This document shows, piece after piece, positions 12,333 to 31,481 of a stretch of 39,554 nt of DNA. Within the stretch, counting starts at the first letter, position 1; each line of letters starts with the position of its first letter. The stretch comes from Silvanigrellaceae bacterium (GTDB lineage Bacteria > Bdellovibrionota_B > Oligoflexia > Silvanigrellales > Silvanigrellaceae), in the NCBI GenBank assembly GCA_049423385.1, contig JBMSQQ010000025.1, positions 1-39,554 of the forward strand. Direction: 5' to 3'. The position numbers and the translations under genes are program-made. Under the pieces are notes generated by a model. That model was given only the letters and a program-made list of their open reading frames with translations. It did not search any database and was not told where the DNA came from.

Positions 12333-12355
12333 CTTTGGGGATCGGGGGCAAACAA

Positions 12356-13207
12356 ATGTCAATGCAACCTGTTGTGCGAGTCATCTACAATCAAAAAGGC
12401 GGCGTGGGAAAAACGACTTTGGCCGTCAATCTGGCTGCCTGTTCCGCTGCATCCGGACTCAGAACATTGCTTGTCGACACCGATCCCCAGGGGAACTCAA
12501 CCACCCATCTGCTGGGAAGCCGAAAGACTCCCGTGAAATCAATTTCCGATTTCTACGAGAGCTGCCTCGGCCTAAACCTCTTCAGGCAAAGCCTTCTTGA
12601 ATATGTGACAACCGACACTGGCGTTGAAAACCTTCACCTGGTTGCTGCCGATCGCGAACTCGAAGAGCTCAGGAACAAGCTCGAAAACAAGCACAAAATC
12701 ATGAAGCTGAAAGACGGCATTCGTTCTACAAACTACGAGGCAATCTATTTTGATCCGCCTCCAGCCAACGATTTTTATGCGCTGAGCAGTCTGATTGCCG
12801 CAAATGAAATTCTTGTGCCGATCGATTGCGATGCCTTCAGCGTCAGGGCAGCCCAAGATATTTTCAACACCATCCGCGAGGTTCAGGCCGACCACAATCC
12901 CGACTTGCGGGTTGTCGGCATCGTCGTGAATCAATTTCAGAAGGGCACGAAACACTCGGCGTCCATCATCAATGAGCTCAAGACATTGGGTTATGACGTT
13001 CTCGAACCTTTCATACCTTCGAGCATCAAGGTCAGGGAGTCACATTCGGAATCGGTTCCTGTTGTTTGCCAATTTCCTGATCATGCCGTCTCTGCTGCGT
13101 TTCGCGAATTGTTCTTGAACATCGAAAAGAAGACTGGACGCACCTTGGCACCGAAGAAATCCAACACGGGACGCTCAAAGTCGACAGAAGCGAGCATCGA
13201 CCCATGA
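12356..13207 (+). CDS. Orphan ParA/Soj family ATPase
   Basis: Deviant Walker [34 protein letters not shown] 12356 after GGGGG. No parB in the window. Confidence 0.9.
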
Positions 13208-21137: not shown

Positions 21138-22193
21138 TCAGCGGGAACGGGAATTTTTCGATTCTTTTTCTTTCCGCAGTTTATGGAGTGCGCTGCCGAG
21201 GTCTTTGATTCTCGGCACATCATCCGAGAACACCCGCCACGCGGACACGGGACTCGACTGAAAGTCCTGGGCATGCAGCGGCAGCAAGCCCCTCCTCTGC
21301 GCCAAAACGTCCCGCTTTTCATAGATGAATCGAATAAAATCCAGGGCTACTGCTTCATTCCGACAGTCAGAAACCAGACCAATGCCGATGCGTTCAAAAT
21401 AAGATCCCTGCACCGGAACTGTGAATGCGAGATTTTTGATATAACGCGAAGCGTGAATATAATCGGACTGCCAAGCAAGTCCCACCGCGATCTTTTTAGC
21501 CAAAAACGCCGGTATTGCAGAGGAAAGCGAATATGGGCGACCCTGCAGTTGCGCCTGGTTCAACCAGATGTTGACGTTCTGGGCATCATGCAATTGTTCC
21601 ACAGGAAATTTGAGTCCCGTGGCCACCGCTGCCGTCATCAAGTTCATGCGTTCATCGGAAAACAGGGCCAAGCGGGAACGCCACAATGGATTGGTCACAG
21701 GGTTCACCACCCAATCCCAGCTCACGGGACCCGATGCGATCAAAGACTTCCGGAGAAACATGATCCCCAAAGGATCAGCCATCAGATTCAAGTGTGTCCT
21801 GCCATCGGGATTGGCCCGGGCACGCCGTTCAAGCCCCGCGACATCTGCGGGAACACTGATCCCCTCTGGCAAGTTCTTGAGAATCTTGGCAAGGCTTAGA
21901 TTGACGAGGCGCTGCTCGTCCGCCACGACGAGGTCCCAATTGTGCGGCAGGGAGCGAATTTTCGATTCATAATCCAGAGCCGAAGTGACGAACTCAACCC
22001 TCACCGAGAGTTTTCGGGATGCCTCGAATTCCTGAACCAATGCGGCGTCAAGCCGCTGGGTTTGGGTCAAAATACTGAGTGACGCTTCTGCGTTCGCCAC
22101 AGTGGAACAAAAGCAGAGAGCGACAATAACACCGCGGTTGATTTGATCTCGCAGATCTGTTGTGGCAAGACCTAGCCGTTTGACAAGCCTCAT
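21138..22193 (-). CDS. Orphan ABC substrate-binding protein, PotD/PotF-like (divergent)
   Basis: Patterns LVQEFEASRKLSVRVE, WDLVV, PVSWDWVVNP, VPVQGS and NEAVALDFIRFI parallel PotD. Start uncertain (22193 or 22220). Confidence 0.7.
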   Translation of the reverse strand: MRLVKRLGLATTDLRDQINRGVIVALCFCSTVANAEASLSILTQTQRLDAALVQEFEASRKLSVRVEFVTSALDYESKIRSLPHNWDLVVADEQRLVNLSLAKILKNLPEGISVPADVAGLERRARANPDGRTHLNLMADPLGIMFLRKSLIASGPVSWDWVVNPVTNPLWRSRLALFSDERMNLMTAAVATGLKFPVEQLHDAQNVNIWLNQAQLQGRPYSLSSAIPAFLAKKIAVGLAWQSDYIHASRYIKNLAFTVPVQGSYFERIGIGLVSDCRNEAVALDFIRFIYEKRDVLAQRRGLLPLHAQDFQSSPVSAWRVFSDDVPRIKDLGSALHKLRKEKESKNSRSR

Positions 22194-22218
22194 CCTTGCA
22201 GAGAGGAACAAAGTCTTC

Positions 22219-23271
22219 ATGAGTAAGATCCGTTTCGTAGATACCGATGACCTTGGGAGCGATCCATTCGCATCCGAGAACCATGTAACCACAGAATTTG
22301 AAAAGTTGCTTGAGTCGGAATCCACTTCTGCCTCATTGAAGCGCTACCGACCCGGCGAGTCGATCACCGGAACGGTCCTCCGTTGCAGTGCCGAGTTTGT
22401 TTTTGTTGACCTTGGCGGCAAGAGCACCGCGACTTTGGCACTCGAAGAATTCACCACCGCGGGTCTGACTCCACCGGCAGCTGGCGAAGATATTCAGGCT
22501 TTCATTCGCAAGGACAACGGCTCCGAGATTATCTTGACACGTTCCCTTCGCCGCGGAGAGCAGGACGACGGCATGCTGCGCAATGCGCACGAAACCCGAC
22601 TTCCTGTCGAAGCCAAGGTCGAAAAGGTGGTCAAGGGCGGATTCGAGGCGTCTCTCTCGGGCAAACGTGCCTTTGTTCCCCTGAGCCAAATGGAAATCGG
22701 TCAGGTTGCGGATCCCGAGAGCTACATTGGTCAGGTCCTCAAATTCATCATCACCGAGTACAAGGCTGGCGGCAAAAATATTGTTTTGTCACGAAAGTCG
22801 ATTCTCAAGGACGAAAAAGATGCGCGCGCAGGCGAAATGCTGCGCACCCTCGAAGTCGGCCAGAAAATGGTCGCAACAATCACCCGACTGGCAGATTTTG
22901 GTGCGTTTGCAGACCTGGGTGGATTTGAAGGGCTTATCCCCATGTCTGAATTGGCATGGAAGCGCGTCGCCAAGGCTCAGGATGTGGTCAAGGTTGGTGA
23001 AACGGTGAACGTCAAGGTCATCCGCATTGAACACGCCCCTCGCCTTCGGGTCGCCCTGAGCCTCAAACAGGCCATGCCTGAAGAACTGGCCATGAAGCTC
23101 TCCGGCAAACATGGATCCACCGCTGGTGCACTGCAGGCCGAGGAACGCGACAACCAACAGGCCTGGGCATCATACAAAGACAAACAAAACCAGCCGGTTG
23201 CCAAAAACGACTCGAACGAAGGCGGGATTCTTGCGGCGGCCTTCGCAAGCGCCCGTAAAAGAAAGCAATAG
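22219..23271 (+). CDS. S1 RNA-binding domain protein; short (3-domain) ribosomal protein S1 paralog
   Basis: ATG 22219 after GAGAGGA. Three S1 repeats (VFVDLGGKS; KGGFEASLSGKRAFVPLSQ; DFGAFADLGGFEGLIPMSEL). Confidence 0.9.
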   Translation: MSKIRFVDTDDLGSDPFASENHVTTEFEKLLESESTSASLKRYRPGESITGTVLRCSAEFVFVDLGGKSTATLALEEFTTAGLTPPAAGEDIQAFIRKDNGSEIILTRSLRRGEQDDGMLRNAHETRLPVEAKVEKVVKGGFEASLSGKRAFVPLSQMEIGQVADPESYIGQVLKFIITEYKAGGKNIVLSRKSILKDEKDARAGEMLRTLEVGQKMVATITRLADFGAFADLGGFEGLIPMSELAWKRVAKAQDVVKVGETVNVKVIRIEHAPRLRVALSLKQAMPEELAMKLSGKHGSTAGALQAEERDNQQAWASYKDKQNQPVAKNDSNEGGILAAAFASARKRKQ

Positions 23272-23368: not shown

Positions 23369-23409
23369 GCAACGGCGCAATCGATCCTGTTCAGAGAGGT
23401 ATTCACATC

Positions 23410-25185
23410 ATGGCAACAGTTCACTCCGATTCCACCAAGCGCAAAGGCAGTTATTCGAGTCTTGAATGGCTCGACGAAGATGTCGATTTTGCAAATCCAG
23501 AAGCATCTGAGAAAGAAGCCTTTGCAGCGCTTTTCGGCGAAAGCACAACCGGCTCCAACATCAAGGAAGGCCAGGTTGTCAAAGGCAAGGTGATGGAAAT
23601 TCTCGACGACAGCGTTGTTGTCGACATCGGTCACAAGTCTGCTGGCGCCGTGCCAAAGAGTGAATTCGCAACCGACGGTGTGTTCTCTCTGAAAGTTGGC
23701 GACATTGTCGACGTCTTCGTTGACGTGTTCGAAGACGATGATGGTGAGTTGGTTCTCTCGAAAGACAAAGCTGACCTCCTCAAAGCTTGGGACCGCATTT
23801 CTGAAGCATTCGAAAAAGACGAATTGGTCGAAGGCCGCATCGTTGGCCGCGTCAAGGGCGGGTTGTCTGTGGACATCGGCGTCAAGGCGTTCCTCCCCGG
23901 TTCGCAAGTTGATCTGCGTCCTGTCCGCAACCTCGAAAAACTTCTTGGACAGGTTCTCCAGTTCAAGATCATCAAGTTCAACAAGAAGCGCGGCAACATC
24001 GTTCTGTCTCGCCGAGTTCTCCTCGAGCAGGATCGCGAGCGCCTGCGCAGCGAAACCCTCAAGAGCCTCGAAGCTGGCAGCGTCATGGCCGGTATCGTCA
24101 AGAACATCACCGACTACGGTGCGTTCATTGACCTCGGCGGAATCGACGGCCTCCTGCACATCACGGACATGTCTTGGGGACGCCTCAACAGTCCTGCTGA
24201 AGTGCTCAACGTCGGCGACGAAATCCAGGTCAAGGTTCTCAGCTACGACGCAGGAACCCACCGCGTTTCTCTCGGCCTCAAGCAACTCCAGTCTGATCCA
24301 TGGGTCAAGGTTGCTGAGCGTTACAACCCCAACCAGCGTTTGAAGGGCAAGGTTGTCAGCCTGACCGACTACGGCGCATTTGTTGAGCTCGAGCCTGGCG
24401 TTGAAGGCCTCATCCACGTCACTGAAATGACCTGGAACCGCCGCGTCAAGCATCCTTCGAAACTCGTTGCCATCGGCGACGAAGTTGAAGTCGTGGTACT
24501 TGCTGTTGACCTCGAAAACCACCGCATCTCGCTCGGCATGAAGCAAACCGAACCCAATCCTTGGGAACTCGTTCTCGAGAAATACCAGGTGGGCGACGTC
24601 ATCCGTGGCAAGATCCGCAACATCACCGACTTCGGTGTGTTTGTTGGAATTGAAGAAGGCGTTGACGGCTTGATTCACGTTTCCGACATCTCGTGGACCG
24701 AGCGCATCAAGCACCCACAAGACCTGTACAAGAAGGGTGATGAAGTCGAAGCCAAGGTTCTCCAAATCGACGTGGAAAACATGCGCTTCTCGCTTGGCAT
24801 CAAGCAACTTCAGGAAGACCCCTACGAAGCAGCTTCGCGCGTTTTCGTTCCTGGCACACGTGCCAAGGGCAAAGTCACCCGCAATGCAGAATTCGGTTCG
24901 TTTGTTGAGTTGTCGCCCGGTGTGGAAGGACTCATTCACGTCTCCGAGCTCGATATGGAACCTGGAAAGCTTCCTGACATCGACACGGAACTCGAGTTCA
25001 TCGTCCTGCGCGTCGACCTGACTGAGCGTCGTTTTGAACTTTCGCACAAGGCTGCAACCCGCGGTCTCGACGAAACCCACAACCGCGCCATCCAGGCAGC
25101 AAGTGCAACACCTGCAGCCACTGGCTTTGCAGAAGCATTTGCCCGTGCGAAGAACCGCACAACAAAAGAACGCACTGAGGAATAA
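23410..25185 (+). CDS. rpsA: 30S ribosomal protein S1
   Basis: Six S1 domains (AFLPGSQVD, ITDYGAFIDLGGIDGLLHITDMSW, YGAFVELEPGVEGLIHVTEM etc.). SD GAGAGGT. Strongly biased codon usage. Confidence 0.97.
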   Translation: MATVHSDSTKRKGSYSSLEWLDEDVDFANPEASEKEAFAALFGESTTGSNIKEGQVVKGKVMEILDDSVVVDIGHKSAGAVPKSEFATDGVFSLKVGDIVDVFVDVFEDDDGELVLSKDKADLLKAWDRISEAFEKDELVEGRIVGRVKGGLSVDIGVKAFLPGSQVDLRPVRNLEKLLGQVLQFKIIKFNKKRGNIVLSRRVLLEQDRERLRSETLKSLEAGSVMAGIVKNITDYGAFIDLGGIDGLLHITDMSWGRLNSPAEVLNVGDEIQVKVLSYDAGTHRVSLGLKQLQSDPWVKVAERYNPNQRLKGKVVSLTDYGAFVELEPGVEGLIHVTEMTWNRRVKHPSKLVAIGDEVEVVVLAVDLENHRISLGMKQTEPNPWELVLEKYQVGDVIRGKIRNITDFGVFVGIEEGVDGLIHVSDISWTERIKHPQDLYKKGDEVEAKVLQIDVENMRFSLGIKQLQEDPYEAASRVFVPGTRAKGKVTRNAEFGSFVELSPGVEGLIHVSELDMEPGKLPDIDTELEFIVLRVDLTERRFELSHKAATRGLDETHNRAIQAASATPAATGFAEAFARAKNRTTKERTEE

Positions 25186-26219: not shown

Positions 26220-26285
26220 AGGATTGAAACGCCACCACGCGATTCGGTCCTCATGTTGAGCATGAAGACAAGGGAGCGATGGAAC

Positions 26286-28535
26286 GTGGACGCGTCTGAA
26301 CTCAGGCAGATTGTCGAGATGTTCATCCAGGAATCGGATGAAACTCTCGCGCAATTTGAGCAATGCTTTCTGGAGCTGGAAAAATCAGGTCCGGACAGCC
26401 GCGTGATCGACCGGCTTTGCCGCATGTCGCGAAATCTGAGGGGCTCAGCTGCTGCACTCGGATTTACTGAAATTTCGAATTTCACTTCACATCTTGAAAC
26501 TTTTTTGTCGACCCTGAAAGACGAAAAACTTGTCATCTCGTCTGAGATTGTTTCGTTGCTTCTCGCATCGCGCGATTTTCTTGCCAATGGAATTCAAACA
26601 CTGCGCTCGGGAAAAAAATCTACTGAAACCGGCGAAACAATCGTGGATGCGATGGCAAATTTGCGACGCAGCAAGCCAGAGTTTCAACCCATCAACCTGC
26701 CACGCCCTGCAGAAGCCGGCGACATCTGGTTTGTTGGCAACGATCTCAAAGCGGTGTTGTTTGAAATGCCCGAACAACCTCTACCCGATGCAATCGACGA
26801 AGCACACTCAAACCAATCCACTCCAAACGCAAACCCCGTTTCGGAGGGCGCTGGCAACTCCATCACCGGTTTCGCCTCGATTGATCCGAAGCTTGCAGCA
26901 ATTCAAGCAGAAATCCTCCGCCTGACGATGCTGGCAGCCCAGGTGAATCTCAACACGGTTCAGGCTGCGACGGCGTTGGAGACGGCAGCATCCACGACCG
27001 CGCTCATCATTCCACAGCAGCAGGAAAAATCAGACGAAGACTTGAAGTCAAGCGACGATAAAACAACCGCAGTGCCGACAGAACCATTGAATTCATCTGA
27101 AGAGATTGAAGCTTCCATTGCCCATGCTGAAACTGCTGAAGAACACAATACTGCAACAATTTTTGAAGTATCCACCGTTGCATCACCGGAAAAGTTAGAA
27201 ACTTCAGACGAAACGGCACCGGAGAACGAAGCCGGACAAGCACCAATGGAAGATCACACCGTGATCGTCCCGGAAATGGAAACATTGCTTCCTGGAGTCT
27301 TGCTGGGCGGCTTGGGGACATCCGTGGACCAGGTCAAGATTGGACTGGACCGAATCGATCGGTTGGTGAATTACGTGGGCGAGCTGGTCATTCTCCAGAG
27401 TGCAATCGAAGAACACAGAAAAGACATCGAACATGTCCAGCTCCAAAGAAGTTTTTCACAACTTGCAAAAGTCGTGCACGAGGTTCAGGAAATCGCCCTC
27501 GGCTTGCGGATGGTCAAGGTCAAGCCGATTCAGTTGAAACTTCAACGTATTGTTCGCGACCATGCGCAGGAACTCAACAAGCCTGTCGATTTCTCCTTTA
27601 TCGGAGAAGAAGTGGAAATGGACAAAACTGTCCTGGACCTCGTCGCTGAGCCAATCTTCAACCTTGTCAGATATTCACTCAAATTCGGCATCGAAAACAC
27701 AGAAACAAGGAGCCGCTCAGGGAAACCTGTCCAGGGCAAACTGGAGATGAGCATCAAACAGCAGTCCAGGGGCGTTGTTATCGAAATCCGTGATGATGGT
27801 CGAGGCATCGACTTTGAAGCGGTCCGCCGGAGCGCAGTTGAAAGGGGACTCGTCACTCCCTTCGAAAAAATTTCAGAAGAAAAATTGTCCGCATTGATTT
27901 TCCATCCAGGATTTTCGCAGCGAAACAGTCTTGCGAATGGATCCGAGCCCATGTTCGACATGAGCAAAATTGCCTCTTTGACAGAGTCCCTGAACGGAAA
28001 AATTCAACTCGAATCCAAGCTGGGCCATGGAAGCTGCTTCAGGCTTGTTCTGCCGAACACAATTTCAATTGTCGACGGAGTTGTTGTCAAATCGGGTCGG
28101 GAACGATTTGTTGTCGCAAAAACGCAGGTCAGCGAAACAATCCGTCCGCACGAAAAGGAAATAGCCCTCGTTCATGGAAAAAGTGAACTGATCAGTTTGC
28201 ACGGAAAAAACATCCCGCTCTTCCATTTGTCGAAGCTTCTTGGCAAATCTGTTCATCTCAACCCCGAGAGAAGCACATTCGACGGTATTGCACTTGTGGT
28301 CGAGAATGATGAAAAAAAGACATTTGCCGTGATTGTCGACGACGTTGTGAACCAGCAACAAGTTGTTATCAAAAAACTCGGAAACGAACTTCAGCACATC
28401 CAGGGACTTGTGGGTGCAACGATTCTGGGCGACGGCCGACCTGCCATCGTGGTTGACCTCGAGGAACTTGTAAATTCACTTCCCGCGAGACAACAGGAAG
28501 CAAGCAAATCCGGCGCGAAGACAAAGGCTGCGTGA
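26286..28535 (+). CDS. cheA: CheA-like protein with degenerate phosphotransfer and ATP-binding motifs (probable pseudokinase)
   Basis: HPt-like N-terminus, dimerisation domain (RIDRLVNYVGELVI), HATPase-like domain (IRDDGRGID, LIFHPGFS) and CheW-like P5 (QQQVVIKKL, GATILGDGR). His, N-box and G2 box are substituted. GTG 26286 follows AGGGAG (alternatives ATG 26253 and 26262). Confidence 0.9.
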   Translation: MDASELRQIVEMFIQESDETLAQFEQCFLELEKSGPDSRVIDRLCRMSRNLRGSAAALGFTEISNFTSHLETFLSTLKDEKLVISSEIVSLLLASRDFLANGIQTLRSGKKSTETGETIVDAMANLRRSKPEFQPINLPRPAEAGDIWFVGNDLKAVLFEMPEQPLPDAIDEAHSNQSTPNANPVSEGAGNSITGFASIDPKLAAIQAEILRLTMLAAQVNLNTVQAATALETAASTTALIIPQQQEKSDEDLKSSDDKTTAVPTEPLNSSEEIEASIAHAETAEEHNTATIFEVSTVASPEKLETSDETAPENEAGQAPMEDHTVIVPEMETLLPGVLLGGLGTSVDQVKIGLDRIDRLVNYVGELVILQSAIEEHRKDIEHVQLQRSFSQLAKVVHEVQEIALGLRMVKVKPIQLKLQRIVRDHAQELNKPVDFSFIGEEVEMDKTVLDLVAEPIFNLVRYSLKFGIENTETRSRSGKPVQGKLEMSIKQQSRGVVIEIRDDGRGIDFEAVRRSAVERGLVTPFEKISEEKLSALIFHPGFSQRNSLANGSEPMFDMSKIASLTESLNGKIQLESKLGHGSCFRLVLPNTISIVDGVVVKSGRERFVVAKTQVSETIRPHEKEIALVHGKSELISLHGKNIPLFHLSKLLGKSVHLNPERSTFDGIALVVENDEKKTFAVIVDDVVNQQQVVIKKLGNELQHIQGLVGATILGDGRPAIVVDLEELVNSLPARQQEASKSGAKTKAA

Positions 28536-28550: not shown

Positions 28551-29024
28551 GTGAACCTCGTTGACAACTATCTTTCATTCATTGTCGGTGGCGAACGTTT
28601 TGCCATCTCCTTGAAGGAAGTCCGGGAAGTTGTGCCATTGAGGGACCTCGCACCGGTTCCCTTCACACCAGATTATATTCAGGGAATCTTGAACCTGCGG
28701 GGAAGCATTGTCACCGTGATCGACCTCGGCAAACGGTTCGAGCTCAAACAGACCCAGGAAAATGAGGAAGAATCCATCCTGATTGTGGAACACAACCAAA
28801 CCCTGCTTGGACTTAAAATCGACAGCATGGACGGCGTGATTCATTTGTCAGCCGAGGAACTTGCGGCACCTCCCGATTTTGGCGAAACCGCGGTCAGCAG
28901 ATTCATGACCGCGCTGGTTCGCAGGGAACGTCAGTTCATTGTCGTTCTCGGTACAGAAAAACTTTTTTTGTTCGATGAGTTCTCGTCGCCCGCTGCAAGG
29001 AGTGAATCCAAGGCTGCGGTCTAG
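28551..29024 (+). CDS. cheW: Chemotaxis adaptor CheW
   Basis: YLSFIVGGERFAI, VREVV, PVPFTPDYIQGILNLRGSIVTVIDL. GTG start after AGGAG. Confidence 0.95.
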   Translation: MNLVDNYLSFIVGGERFAISLKEVREVVPLRDLAPVPFTPDYIQGILNLRGSIVTVIDLGKRFELKQTQENEEESILIVEHNQTLLGLKIDSMDGVIHLSAEELAAPPDFGETAVSRFMTALVRRERQFIVVLGTEKLFLFDEFSSPAARSESKAAV

Positions 29025-29033
29025 GGGAAGTTC

Positions 29034-30830
29034 ATGAGAAACTGGAGCTTCAACGAAAAGAAAATTGCTGTCGGGGCGATCCTTGTCCTGACACTGATGG
29101 CAGTTTCGGCTGTTGGAATCACCGGTATATTCCGACTGGACAAAGCTATCGACATGCAGGCATCCGCCTTTGAAACCGAGACAACACTCAACAATCTCGG
29201 CTCATCCCTGGAAGGCATCAGATCCATCGAGGCGGAAGCCATTCTTGAACCGACACTGGAAGAAATGTCCATCTACCCGAAAAAAATGGCAGATGCCTAC
29301 AGGAACTGGAACGAGCTGCTGAATGCTCTTGAAACAAGAACATCAGACATCGCGCAAAAAAACAGAATCGGCGATTTCAGAACCTTGATCGCAAAACGCA
29401 AAGAGCTGAGTGACAGGGTCTTGAAGGCCGCCATCGAGGGAGACAACGATCAGGCCTTTGCATTTCACAATTCAAACGAAGTTCCGGTGCGACCCCTCGA
29501 GGAAAGAATTTCACAAGTTGTCGGCGAGGTTGTGCAATTTGAACGCGCAGGTATGAGCCTCATCAAGCGGGAAACTGCTCATCAAAGCAGGGTCTGGAAT
29601 TACTGGATGTGGCTTTCCACAGGTATTGGCCTGTTTTTAAGCCTCTCTTTCCTCAGTGGCACAATGACAAGTCTTGGGAAAAACCTGACAAGGCTTTCTG
29701 CAAACATTATTGAATCGGCACAGCAGACCAGTTTTTCGGCACAACAGACGGCAACGACCGCCTCGCGACTTGCGGCAGGAGCAATCATTGAATCGAACCA
29801 CGCCGATGATTCCGCAACTTCTGCAATGGAGTTTTCTTCCGCAATGTCACTTGCTGCGGAAAATTCGAAAAAGACGAGCGAATTTGCGACACGATGCGCA
29901 CTGGAAACCGAGCAGGGAAAAGATGTTTTCGAAGATGCACTGCAGACCCTGATGGACGTGAACCTCGGCAGCGGCGAACTTGTTGGTCAAATCAAAAACG
30001 ACGCACAGCGTCTTTCGGAAATTTCAGGATTGATCAGCTGCATTGGCGAAAAAAGCAAAGTCATCAATGAAATCTCATTTCAGGCGAAATTGCTCGCATT
30101 CAACGCATCTGTTGAAGCGGCCCGCGCCGGCGAAAACGGAAAGGGATTTGCTGTCATCGCAGATGAAATCGGGAATCTGGCTCTCACCTGCACCTCTCTT
30201 GTCCGCGAAGTGAATTCACTTTGTGAAAGGAGTGTTCTCAAGGCAGAGGCAATTTCCAGGGAAACGCAGGCGAAGTTGAACCTGTTGGCGCAAGTTGTAC
30301 AAGACAAACGGTCAGAAGGAATGCAGATTTCGGCCCAATGCGAACAAATGTTCGTCAAGCTTTGCTCCAACGCAAATCGAATGGCCGAAATGACGCATGA
30401 ATTGAGCAAGGCGTCGATTGAAAAATCAGAAGCCATGACTATCATCACCCAGGCACTCAACGATTTGAGGCAAAATGCCCTGAACAACGCAACAAGCGCC
30501 CAGGAATGTTCGGCAGCAACCGAAGAACTTTCGGCTCAGTGCGAGAATCTTCATGTGGCAGTTCGGAGTCTGCAGAATGCTGTGAATGGCAATCCACCAA
30601 ATCCGACAAGATCGAGGGGCTCAATTCCATCAGCACGGCCTGTGACTCAGGGAGGCGAAAAAGAAGTGCAATCGGTTGAATCGCCTCGGCCAGGACTGAG
30701 AGCCATCGTCGGAAGAACCGAGGGCAGGACAAACCGGTTTCGCATCGCTCAGCGCACCTCCGGAGAGGAGCATCTGCGCAAGGCTGTGGGTGCAGAAGAC
30801 ATTCCATTTGAAAGTTCGGATGACACCTGA
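29034..30830 (+). CDS. Methyl-accepting chemotaxis protein (2 TM, helical periplasmic sensor)
   Basis: Two TM helices flanking a ~155-aa helical domain. Signalling tip FQAKLLAFNASVEAARAGENGKGFAVIADEIGNLA. Confidence 0.93.
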   Translation: MRNWSFNEKKIAVGAILVLTLMAVSAVGITGIFRLDKAIDMQASAFETETTLNNLGSSLEGIRSIEAEAILEPTLEEMSIYPKKMADAYRNWNELLNALETRTSDIAQKNRIGDFRTLIAKRKELSDRVLKAAIEGDNDQAFAFHNSNEVPVRPLEERISQVVGEVVQFERAGMSLIKRETAHQSRVWNYWMWLSTGIGLFLSLSFLSGTMTSLGKNLTRLSANIIESAQQTSFSAQQTATTASRLAAGAIIESNHADDSATSAMEFSSAMSLAAENSKKTSEFATRCALETEQGKDVFEDALQTLMDVNLGSGELVGQIKNDAQRLSEISGLISCIGEKSKVINEISFQAKLLAFNASVEAARAGENGKGFAVIADEIGNLALTCTSLVREVNSLCERSVLKAEAISRETQAKLNLLAQVVQDKRSEGMQISAQCEQMFVKLCSNANRMAEMTHELSKASIEKSEAMTIITQALNDLRQNALNNATSAQECSAATEELSAQCENLHVAVRSLQNAVNGNPPNPTRSRGSIPSARPVTQGGEKEVQSVESPRPGLRAIVGRTEGRTNRFRIAQRTSGEEHLRKAVGAEDIPFESSDDT

Positions 30831-30854: not shown

Positions 30855-31481
30855 TCAAGCCGACCTGGAGCGTTTTGATCTGCGCCTTTCCGTGGGAATC
30901 TCTTCCTCGGAACTTCCAATCTCGGGCGTGTCGGGAGAAATTTCTTCGCCGCCTGTTTCATCAAACTCTTCGCCTTCTTCGTCGCCTTCTTCCATCAGGA
31001 CATCGAAGGCGCGTTTCCATTCCGTTGTGATTTCAAGAAACTCCGGGCGCTGCTGAACTTCGCGGAAGGCCCTGAGCCACTGGGTGACGACAACCTCAGC
31101 CCTCGTGCCTTGCAATCCACCCCCAATGGAGTGGACGCGGGTGGGCAGAGTCACATCCAGAAAAGCGGAAAGACCAAGTTCAGGCTCCAGTCCAAGCAGC
31201 TCGGCAAAGGTGCCGGAAATCGACCACATCAATTGGCCCGCATTGGTTGGAGCTTCGAGAGCGGAAATCATGCTCTCAACGGAACGGCATTGCGCCGACT
31301 CGAGGACACGCTCAATCTCTGAGCCTTCGGCCTCAAGGAGCACAGGCATCACCAAAAGTAGAAAACCTTTCCAAAGCTCACGCTGTTTTGCGTGAGTCTT
31401 GTCGGAGAAAGCATAGAGAGTGAGCAGATCAACCCGCACGCGCACTCCTCGAAAGGTTAGAATTGCATAACTTTTGGACAC
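30855..31481 (-). CDS. Hypothetical protein with acidic-then-basic C-terminal tail
   Basis: 208-aa ORF filling the gap between mcp and tmk. Tail EEGDEEGEEFDETGGEE...ERRRSKRSRSA. GTG start uncertain. Confidence 0.65.
   Translation of the reverse strand: MSKSYAILTFRGVRVRVDLLTLYAFSDKTHAKQRELWKGFLLLVMPVLLEAEGSEIERVLESAQCRSVESMISALEAPTNAGQLMWSISGTFAELLGLEPELGLSAFLDVTLPTRVHSIGGGLQGTRAEVVVTQWLRAFREVQQRPEFLEITTEWKRAFDVLMEEGDEEGEEFDETGGEEISPDTPEIGSSEEEIPTERRRSKRSRSA

Follow-up and report, generated by a model that had tools for sequence, protein, structure and literature searches.

Can a chemotaxis histidine kinase that has lost both halves of its catalytic machinery still be kept in use, and for what? 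This question is raised by a 39,554-nucleotide stretch of a Silvanigrellaceae genome (assembly GCA_049423385.1, contig JBMSQQ010000025.1; hereafter the window), in which a cheA-derived gene is followed by cheW and by a gene for a methyl-accepting chemotaxis protein (MCP). An initial annotation had called the product an intact but apparently dead CheA, and had proposed a non-catalytic role (array scaffold, heterodimer inhibitor of an active CheA, or output other than phosphorelay) rather than random decay. Codons and alignments confirm that the open reading frame (ORF) reads as a full-length CheA without the phospho-His and without the ATP-site residues. On the substitution rates reported below, the dead cheA, its cheW and its MCP gene are kept by purifying selection. 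Over a heterodimer inhibitor or plain decay, the evidence favours a non-catalytic array adaptor combining P5, CheW and the receptor tip with N-terminal docking motifs, because the linker motifs, P5 and the receptor periplasm evolve near the live rate, and P3, P4 and the receptor cytoplasmic helices 3-10 times faster. That the CheA of a cheA-cheW-mcp cassette was once active and has since turned into such an adaptor is a reading to which we give about even chances.

Domain layout and catalytic residues

The features of the cassette are as follows (all on the + strand of the window).

26286..28535, +: cheA-derived pseudokinase gene; 749 aa from GTG 26286 (an in-frame ATG at 26253 gives 760 aa)
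26286..26657, +: P1 pseudo-Hpt domain (Pfam; predicted Hpt fold)
26430..26432, +: His48 site, CGA = Arg (protein residue 60 counted from ATG 26253)
26439..26441, +: Lys51 site, Lys51 replaced by Arg
26487..26489, +: His67 site, His67 replaced by Ser
26682..26780, +: linker motif 1, IxLPRPxxAGDIWFVxxDLKAxLFExP, genus-specific; candidate docking site
26880..26972, +: linker motif 2, IQAEIxRLTxLAAxVN, genus-specific; predicted isolated 32-residue helix
27324..27512, +: P3 dimerisation domain, intact but relaxed (Pfam, model, rates)
27513..28061, +: P4 HATPase_c pseudokinase; Asn380 and DH substituted, G1 kept, ATP lid/G2 replaced
27672..27674, +: Asn380 site of the N box, TAT = Tyr (residue 474 from ATG 26253)
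27681..27686, +: N-box DH replaced by KF; the box now has Lys-Phe-Gly instead of D-H-G
27792..27806, +: G1 box, DDGRG kept
27942..27962, +: ATP lid/G2 box, SEPMFDM instead of SGRGVGM; G2 glycines gone
28062..28478, +: P5 CheW-like domain (Pfam; CheW-interface residues kept)
28551..29024, +: cassette cheW (Pfam, ortholog comparison)
29034..30830, +: cassette MCP gene; four-helix-bundle periplasmic domain below the Pfam cut-off, hairpin tip kept

The GTG at 26286 is the likelier start, since the orthologs start at the same VD. Descent from CheA is indicated by the adjacent cheW and chemoreceptor genes, by orthology to canonical CheAs, and by the domain comparison that had been suggested for this gene: Hpt, H-kinase_dim, HATPase_c and CheW were found by Pfam in CheA order, each over its own cut-off. 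The predicted structures also match solved CheA domains. The P1 model agrees with CheA P1 (1i5n) at a root-mean-square deviation of about 2 A, the AlphaFold model of P3-P5 has a confidence (pLDDT) of 83.6 with the lid alone disordered (lid pLDDT <50), and P4 from this model can be laid over the P4 of T. maritima with deviations of 1.1-2.6 A.

Residues are numbered here as in E. coli CheA (6s1k_A), from a phmmer alignment (E 8e-72) which has no gap at the key sites and which puts the substituted residues opposite His48, Asn380 and SGRGVGM. Lys51, His67 and Glu70 form the rest of the P1 activating network around the phospho-His, and the parts that all these residues play in phosphorylation and in the binding of Mg-ATP are well established. 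In the window protein the network His48/Lys51/His67/Glu70 reads Arg, Arg, Ser, Glu, the N box and G2 are lost, and G1 (DxGxG) and the F box (FHPGFS) are retained. As judged from the sequence, the residue classes needed for CheA-type Mg-ATP binding and for carrying phosphate are all absent. The initial annotation was correct on these residues: the Arg codon CGA at 26430-26432 opposite His48, the N-box changes Asn to Tyr (27672-27674) and DH to KF, the loss of the glycines from SGRGVGM to SEPMFDM, the retained DDGRG (27792), F box and P5, and a frame of about 750 codons, which proves open for 760 codons. Its view of P3 as well kept is true of the helices, which are intact, but P3 is among the most relaxed domains of the dead orthologs. 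The two linker motifs, the parallel change of the receptor and a second dead paralog were not part of that account.

Canonical His, Asn and GRG are present in 115 of the 120 best database homologs and the five exceptions are this protein and close relatives, so the loss of the motifs is not a matter of chance. The named homologs come from Oligoflexia/Bdellovibrionota. Two ways out left by the initial annotation were closed. The His of FTSHLE (His80), offered as a substitute phospho-site, faces E. coli Leu68 and not His67, and is a His in only 2 of the 7 dead orthologs described below; it was rejected as unlikely. Assembly error was rejected on the evidence of two Logan proteins identical to the window protein at each residue compared, of independent dead orthologs, and of contigs from four of four runs of one other study, which show no difference at the substituted codons (run X2 is possibly close to the source DNA; gaps in X4 and X6 are uninformative).

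Live and dead orthologs at one locus

Genomes of the genus and family, from organisms known through metagenome assemblies, are designated by G-numbers, G000 being the genome of the window. The order rpsA-sppA-cheA-cheW-mcp-(cheR)-hypothetical-tmk-holB-glgP was found, as far as contigs extend, in 12 of 13 genus genomes. No genus genome with assembled flanks was found without the cassette; G008, which is 70% complete, gave no ortholog. Coverage is limited to P1-P3 in G003 and lacks the first 25 residues in G012, the MCP of G010 was not included, and the G002 locus is spread over two contigs.

Five of the twelve orthologs are canonical (G001, G002, G004, G006, G011) and seven are dead (G000, G012, G009, G007, G010, G003, G005). 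The dead orthologs other than G005 form clade A of the species tree given below. The His48 site holds Arg in 7/7 dead orthologs (codons CGA, CGC, CGT) and His in 5/5 live ones. At the Asn380 site, the five clade-A sequences that cover it have Tyr, Tyr, His, Phe and Tyr, and G005 has Asp. The ATP lid is different in each dead ortholog. His376, the N-box Asn, Asp383, His384 and G470/G472 are gone from all six dead sequences covering P4 and G474 from five of them, whereas G1 (Asp-x-Gly-x-Gly) and the F-box Phe are retained in the 5/5 clade-A sequences that cover them. Between 21 and 27 of 42 live-invariant P3 residues are retained in dead orthologs, and the seven dead frames have no stop or frameshift as far as the contigs reach. 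The most decayed ortholog is that of G005 (C36; L044:8116-10254, - strand), in which the lid and G1 are lost and HATPase_c and H-kinase_dim are undetected by Pfam; it nonetheless keeps P1, both linker motifs and P5.

In two family-level relatives, the closest cassettes have the form cheA-cheW-mcp-cheR/REC/cheB, and cheR is the sole remainder of cheR/REC/cheB in G002 and G011. Related cassettes of G019 and G014 end in CheR-REC-CheB fusion proteins (L046:3876-6176, L047:4262-6187, L049:3132-5423). Among 76 other CheA-like ORFs at loci of the genus, family and class, 67 carry all three motifs by pattern. Eight of the remaining nine have the Asn and G2, and the ninth is the G003 ortholog; no His motif was found in five of these eight, two of which are cut at contig ends. 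The profile cut-off of this screen missed the second dead paralog of G005, so that heavily decayed copies elsewhere could escape it. An intact N box and G2 without a His motif found in P1 were observed in P0231, L123, L132 and L136.

Selection and uneven constraint

The ratio of nonsynonymous to synonymous rates (omega) was estimated on the species topology. For five dead sequences it is 0.082 in P1, 0.083 in P3, 0.037 in P4, 0.027 in P5 and 0.065 in the core, and for five live sequences 0.101, 0.023, 0.013, 0.025 and 0.038, respectively. Neutrality (omega = 1) is rejected for the dead core by 390 log units (log-likelihood -7847.7 free vs -8237.3 fixed). G000 and G012 are both dead and share their dead residues, yet their omega is 0.05-0.14 across the four domains at a synonymous divergence (dS) of 1.0-2.3; selection therefore acted after inactivation. 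Neither stops, nor frameshifts, nor an omega near 1 are seen, and a recent pseudogene was rejected on the low omega and on the saturated dS between two dead copies. The ortholog and dN/dS comparison called for at the outset, with the same sites lost in seven positional orthologs, open frames and a per-domain omega of 0.03-0.08, bears out the claim that this is not random decay. The existence of canonical close relatives, which had been named together with neutral divergence as a sign of recent pseudogenisation, is real (5 of 12 orthologs), but the neutral divergence is absent.

Constraint is unevenly distributed. Ratios of dead to live amino-acid rates, normalised to five control genes with four taxa each, are 0.84 for linker motif 1, 1.27 for motif 2, 1.3 for the MCP periplasmic domain, 1.6 for P5, 2.0 for CheW, 2.2 for P1, 3.3 for P4 and 3.4 for P3; those of the MCP cytoplasmic parts are 4.8-8.8 raw and 5.3-9.6 normalised. 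The same ranking is visible between G000 and G012, in which P1 helices A-B are identical at 46/46 residues (with 16 codons changed silently), motif 1 at 32/32 and motif 2 at 29/29, compared to 112/139 for P5, 48/63 for P3, 106/183 (58%) for P4 and 6/19 for the lid. A third close protein, P0129, has the same pattern.

Both linker motifs are held as tightly as in the active orthologs, and motif 1 is the most conserved part of the dead ones (16-17 of 17 live-invariant residues in all seven). The motifs were not seen among 36 linkers of outside homologs examined, and a structure atlas search with linker residues 136-262 gave a best feature score of 0.86 and TM-scores <=0.41, with no family assignable. 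Motif 2 may resemble the N-terminal peptide of FliM; the fliM of this genome is cut at a contig end.

At positions of the P5/CheW interface, numbered for E. coli CheA after PMC13098124, the dead copies have either the same residue or a conservative substitution. In particular, the interface-1 core (G619, L626-G627-D628-G629 and V631 equivalents) is invariant in 6 dead and 5 live sequences. The N-L-R-G region of CheW can be recognised in every ortholog, as can the receptor tip, and the MCP signalling region has 305 residues without insertion or deletion in 12/12 sequences. The array-scaffold option of the initial annotation is supported by these retained interface residues and by the receptor tip. 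The periplasmic domain of the MCP has an omega of 0.019 in dead vs 0.023 in live cassettes. The SLEETAAS N-terminal methylation consensus is present in 5/5 live MCPs and 0/5 dead ones, and the Phe of a C-terminal D/E-x-R-F-type tail in 4/5 live and 0/5 dead. The cassette MCP is longer than Tsr by 21 residues per arm and differs in length from the C33 receptor of the genome. Tsr belongs to class 36H, which would put the cassette MCP in class 42H.

One loss or two

A tree of 17 genes from 16 genomes separates clade A (G000, G012, G003, G010, G007 and G009, all dead; support 0.996/98.8) from clade B, in which all are live except the dead G005. The nesting of G005 in clade B is supported by flanking genes (p 0.995) and by unlinked genes (p 0.998), which implies two losses with a convergent change of His to Arg. 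G005 has 33 residues in common exclusively with the full set of live orthologs and 7 exclusively with clade A, states that may be ancestral. Trees of the cassette proteins, by contrast, favour one clade of all dead copies (approximately unbiased, AU, test, p 0.97); the species tree is rejected for them at p 0.016-0.038, and a tree with G005 basal to live clade B is not (AU p 0.09-0.11). This single-dead-clade signal is confined to the fast-evolving parts; since it was reproduced by 0/30 homogeneous simulations, simple long-branch attraction does not explain it. The GC content at third codon positions of the cassette gave no sign of foreign origin. Catalysis may have been lost in two separate events, or in a single one if the cassette was exchanged laterally.

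Other chemotaxis genes and a second dead CheA

The genome carries FliM, 8 flagellin matches (one of them, G000:C31:14397-14810, + strand, with an internal TAA), 6 MCP matches, one cheR, a flagellar-cluster CheY (G000:C23) and a CheX-family match. There are two canonical CheAs on contig C5, one a REC-Hpt protein and the other with two Hpt domains (C5:56865-59474). Ordinary chemotaxis is therefore supplied outside the cassette. The REC-Hpt CheA lies in one operon with a CheD-REC-CheB-like fusion and a second cheB (G000:C5:44784-50003, L093). No CheZ was matched over the cut-off in the 5 genomes searched.

A second CheA-derived gene has the same three-gene layout:

G000:C1:31314-32924 (= L092:5315-6925), -: second dead CheA paralog, in a cheA-cheW-dCache MCP cassette

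Its orthologs were found in all 12 other genus genomes searched, and all are dead. His48 is replaced by Gln in 12/13 P1 domains and Lys51 by Arg in 12/13, the N box is gone, the whole lid is deleted, and G1 is kept except in G005. Conservation is highest in its P1 (69% mean identity, 51/115 residues invariant) and lowest in its P3 (39%). Among the best 150 representatives from a library of 1.84 billion sequences, 143 are canonical, five belong to its own family, one has no P1 and one (P0231) lacks the His only. This paralog is a candidate Hpt-fold phosphatase or decoy.

Directly upstream of the second dead cheA, at L092:7055-7081 (+) and also in L094, L095, L100 and L103, we observed a sigma-28-like pattern. 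This pattern, TAAA-N15-GCCGATA, is conserved, yet it is oriented to the divergent neighbouring gene and not to the second dead cheA.

A proposed adaptor and its alternatives

The array adaptor would work as follows. P5, CheW and the receptor tips would still build a baseplate of their own; each arm of the receptor exceeds that of Tsr by 21 residues, and the receptor is unlike the other MCPs of the genome that were aligned. The dead P3-P4 would serve as a folded spacer, its P4 pocket probably plugged by the aromatic residue at the Asn380 site. The working end would be the N-terminal arm, in which the linker motifs and the pseudo-Hpt hold or position a partner protein at the array. This state may have been reached by stepwise loss, from the cheA-cheW-mcp-cheR/REC/cheB of family relatives to the retention of cheR alone in two genus members, then to three members that keep the kinase without cheR or cheB, and to the seven that lost the kinase. 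That an independent second paralog is dead genus-wide in the same layout also speaks for an adaptor.

Several observations weigh against it. P5 (1.6x), CheW (2.0x) and the MCP tip (9.6x) are all relaxed compared to the live orthologs, and P1 identity is 0.37-0.57 across the dead clade vs 0.59-0.87 in the live one, so that part of the signal is gradual erosion. G005 has no lid and little P4 constraint (23/86 live-invariant residues kept), and its copy looks like a later stage of loss. The linker motifs occur in live orthologs too and are absent from the second dead paralog; they are thus no general explanation of dead CheAs. The saturated dS makes the omega values imprecise, and the alignment given to AlphaFold consisted mostly of canonical CheAs, which leans the model toward the CheA fold.

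Erosion may be all there is: a cassette without positive role could be on a slow drift toward deletion, with misfolding and polar effects the only things weakly selected against. The three cassette genes do evolve faster than their flanks in dead lineages (in G012, 82-93% identity for the flanks and 62-66% for the cassette), decay is graded from G009 to G005, and cheB then cheR were lost stepwise. Such drift is hard to reconcile with seven dead frames still open over saturated dS, with an omega far below 1, with 107 N-terminal motif residues 100% identical between G000 and G012 when the lid is at 32%, and with a cassette never missing where the genus flanks are assembled; we consider it improbable. 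The heterodimer inhibitor of the initial annotation, which would pair with an active CheA through P3 and halve or block trans-phosphorylation, has in its favour intact P3 helices predicted to fold and active CheAs in the genome. P3 is, however, relaxed 3.4x, with 21-27 of 42 live-invariant residues kept; it is 37% identical to the P3 of a C5 CheA, the one active paralog compared, with a 10-residue gap, and in the second dead paralog no domain is less conserved than P3. This option is very unlikely. Residual catalysis (nucleotide held through the kept G1 Asp, with a weak or atypical kinase, an ATPase or a phospho-acceptor at another His) seems scarcely credible: the G1 box and F-box Phe persist in clade A, but His80 does not outside 2/7 dead orthologs, the other P4 residues listed above are gone, and G1 is also kept in the second paralog despite the deleted lid, which points to a structural role.

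Two further explanations keep a link to the active system. In a mixed array, the receptor could still sense its ligand and, by way of the CheW/P5 rings, pass the signal on to an active CheA from another locus, with some baseplate positions occupied by the dead CheA. The periplasmic domain is constrained as in live cassettes (rate 1.3), two canonical CheAs are at hand, mixed baseplates of two systems are described in Azospirillum (PMC6759762), and rings are believed to relay signal from one core unit to another (PMC13098124). Against this, relaxation within the cassette is strongest (5-10x) in the helices through which the signal travels from the membrane to the tip, the methylation consensus is gone from all five dead MCPs, and the receptor length differs from that of the other MCPs aligned; such a relay is also improbable. 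Alternatively, the array-tethered P1, which cannot be phosphorylated, could be a decoy that damps the phosphorelay by binding CheY/CheB receivers or an active CheA at its P4, the Arg at the His48 site contacting the phosphate or an acidic pocket. In a variant, the Gln of the second paralog could provide the amide used for dephosphorylation by phosphatases of the CheZ/CheX type. This agrees with the Arg kept in 7/7 dead orthologs over a drifting third codon position, with the silent changes in the identical P1 helices A-B of G000 and G012, with the highly conserved P1 of the second paralog (Gln and the Arg at Lys51 in 12/13 each) and with the lack of a CheZ match in the 5 genomes searched. Precedents are CheA3, a phosphatase of CheY6-P (PMC2924250), and DivL, which binds DivK~P (PMC4211667). 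But P1 is relaxed 2.2x over the dead clade as a whole, CAC to CGC is a single transition so that Arg is also the easiest change, and with a CheX-family match in the genome the phosphatase need not be missing. A decoy is unlikely. A bolder idea, which we also regard as unlikely, is that the genus repeatedly made CheA a phosphorylation-independent regulator by replacing the phospho-His with a residue doing new work: Arg here (possibly fixed twice, in clade A and G005), making an array-tethered pseudo-Hpt that grips phospho-receivers or an active kinase, and in the second paralog Gln, which would make that protein a candidate CheY~P phosphatase with an Hpt fold. If true, receptor-CheW-pseudoCheA arrays would be a chemosensory class with binding or dephosphorylation, not phosphorylation, as output.

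Neighbouring genes and expression signals

A promoter and terminator scan gave no signal above shuffled controls, no conserved element was found in the sppA-cheA intergenic region, and no RNA run is among the sequencing runs listed for the sequence. Upstream, two tandem S1-domain genes (window 22162-23271, +, and 23407-25185, +) are a short S1 paralog followed by the full rpsA; this tandem is kept in G014 as well as across the genus. A conserved hypothetical gene (window 30855-31481, -) with no Pfam match and an acidic C-terminus runs toward the MCP gene in convergent orientation. A ParA/MinD-family ATPase (window 12335-13207, +) lies 13 kb upstream in another operon (epimerase, acyltransferase, DUF3108).

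Comparison with known systems

CheA is treated as the defining, always catalytic marker of chemosensory systems, and by its domains this gene is annotated as an ordinary CheA. The dead protein scores over the cut-off for each of the four Pfam domains, so counts of chemosensory systems made from domain architecture include silent ones, which is a warning. Here a whole cassette persists without phospho-output, and live and dead orthologs occupy the same locus in one genus. They form a natural before/after pair for the roles of the array and of CheA apart from phosphorylation, and they indicate which surfaces are still selected once catalysis is gone: the two linker motifs, P5 and the receptor periplasm, not P3.

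The protein is like canonical CheA (E. coli 6s1k/8c5v, T. maritima 1b3q) and its live orthologs in the order P1-linker-P3-P4-P5, in fold, in its position before cheW and MCP, and in its P5/CheW interface residues. It is unlike canonical CheA in the absence of phospho-His, N-box Asn and G2, in having no P2 but two genus-specific linker motifs, and in a cassette without cheY, cheB and cheR. In a survey of 13,673 CheAs, HATPase_c is the most conserved CheA domain, and CheA3/CheA4 of Cereibacter (Rhodobacter) sphaeroides are called a unique case (PMC10782961). CheA3, the partner of CheA4, has a HATPase_c that is non-functional but kept as structure and is localised to the array (PMC10782961); it has a non-kinase activity as phosphatase (PMC2924250). 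Unlike the window protein, CheA3 retains an Hpt that can be phosphorylated, and its working partner is a P1-less kinase encoded alongside it. The window protein has a single Hpt with Arg and the neighbours sppA, cheW and mcp; a split-kinase partnership was rejected, as the operon holds no P1-less kinase and both C5 CheAs have their own Hpt. With the His also lost, the dead CheA is therefore not half of a split kinase.

Replacement of the phospho-His in a protein repurposed for binding is known from the plant pseudo-HPt AHP6. The pseudo-histidine kinase DivL of Caulobacter is a similar case (PMC4211667), although it is a HisKA-type kinase, unlike the class II CheA considered here. ChpA has His-less Hpt repeats, yet it keeps other, His-bearing Hpts and an active kinase (PMC10782961). 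Another likeness is to Vibrio ParP (PMC5706961): like ParP, the window protein would be a baseplate component without catalysis that links an array to a partner by means of an N-terminal motif. ParP has an array-integrating P5/CheW-like domain and an N-terminal interaction domain, no P1, P3 or P4, and works with ParC. The CheW-like domain of the window protein keeps its interface residues by sequence and may be able to enter the baseplate, but the cassette contains no ParA or ParC gene to go with an N-terminal ParC-binding domain, and the likeness would be one of design only. A literature search, with most subscription journals outside its reach, found no account of a CheA dead at both sites. 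Pseudo-histidine kinases and the half-dead CheA3 are thus already known; what is special here is the matched set of live and dead orthologs, together with an independent second dead paralog.

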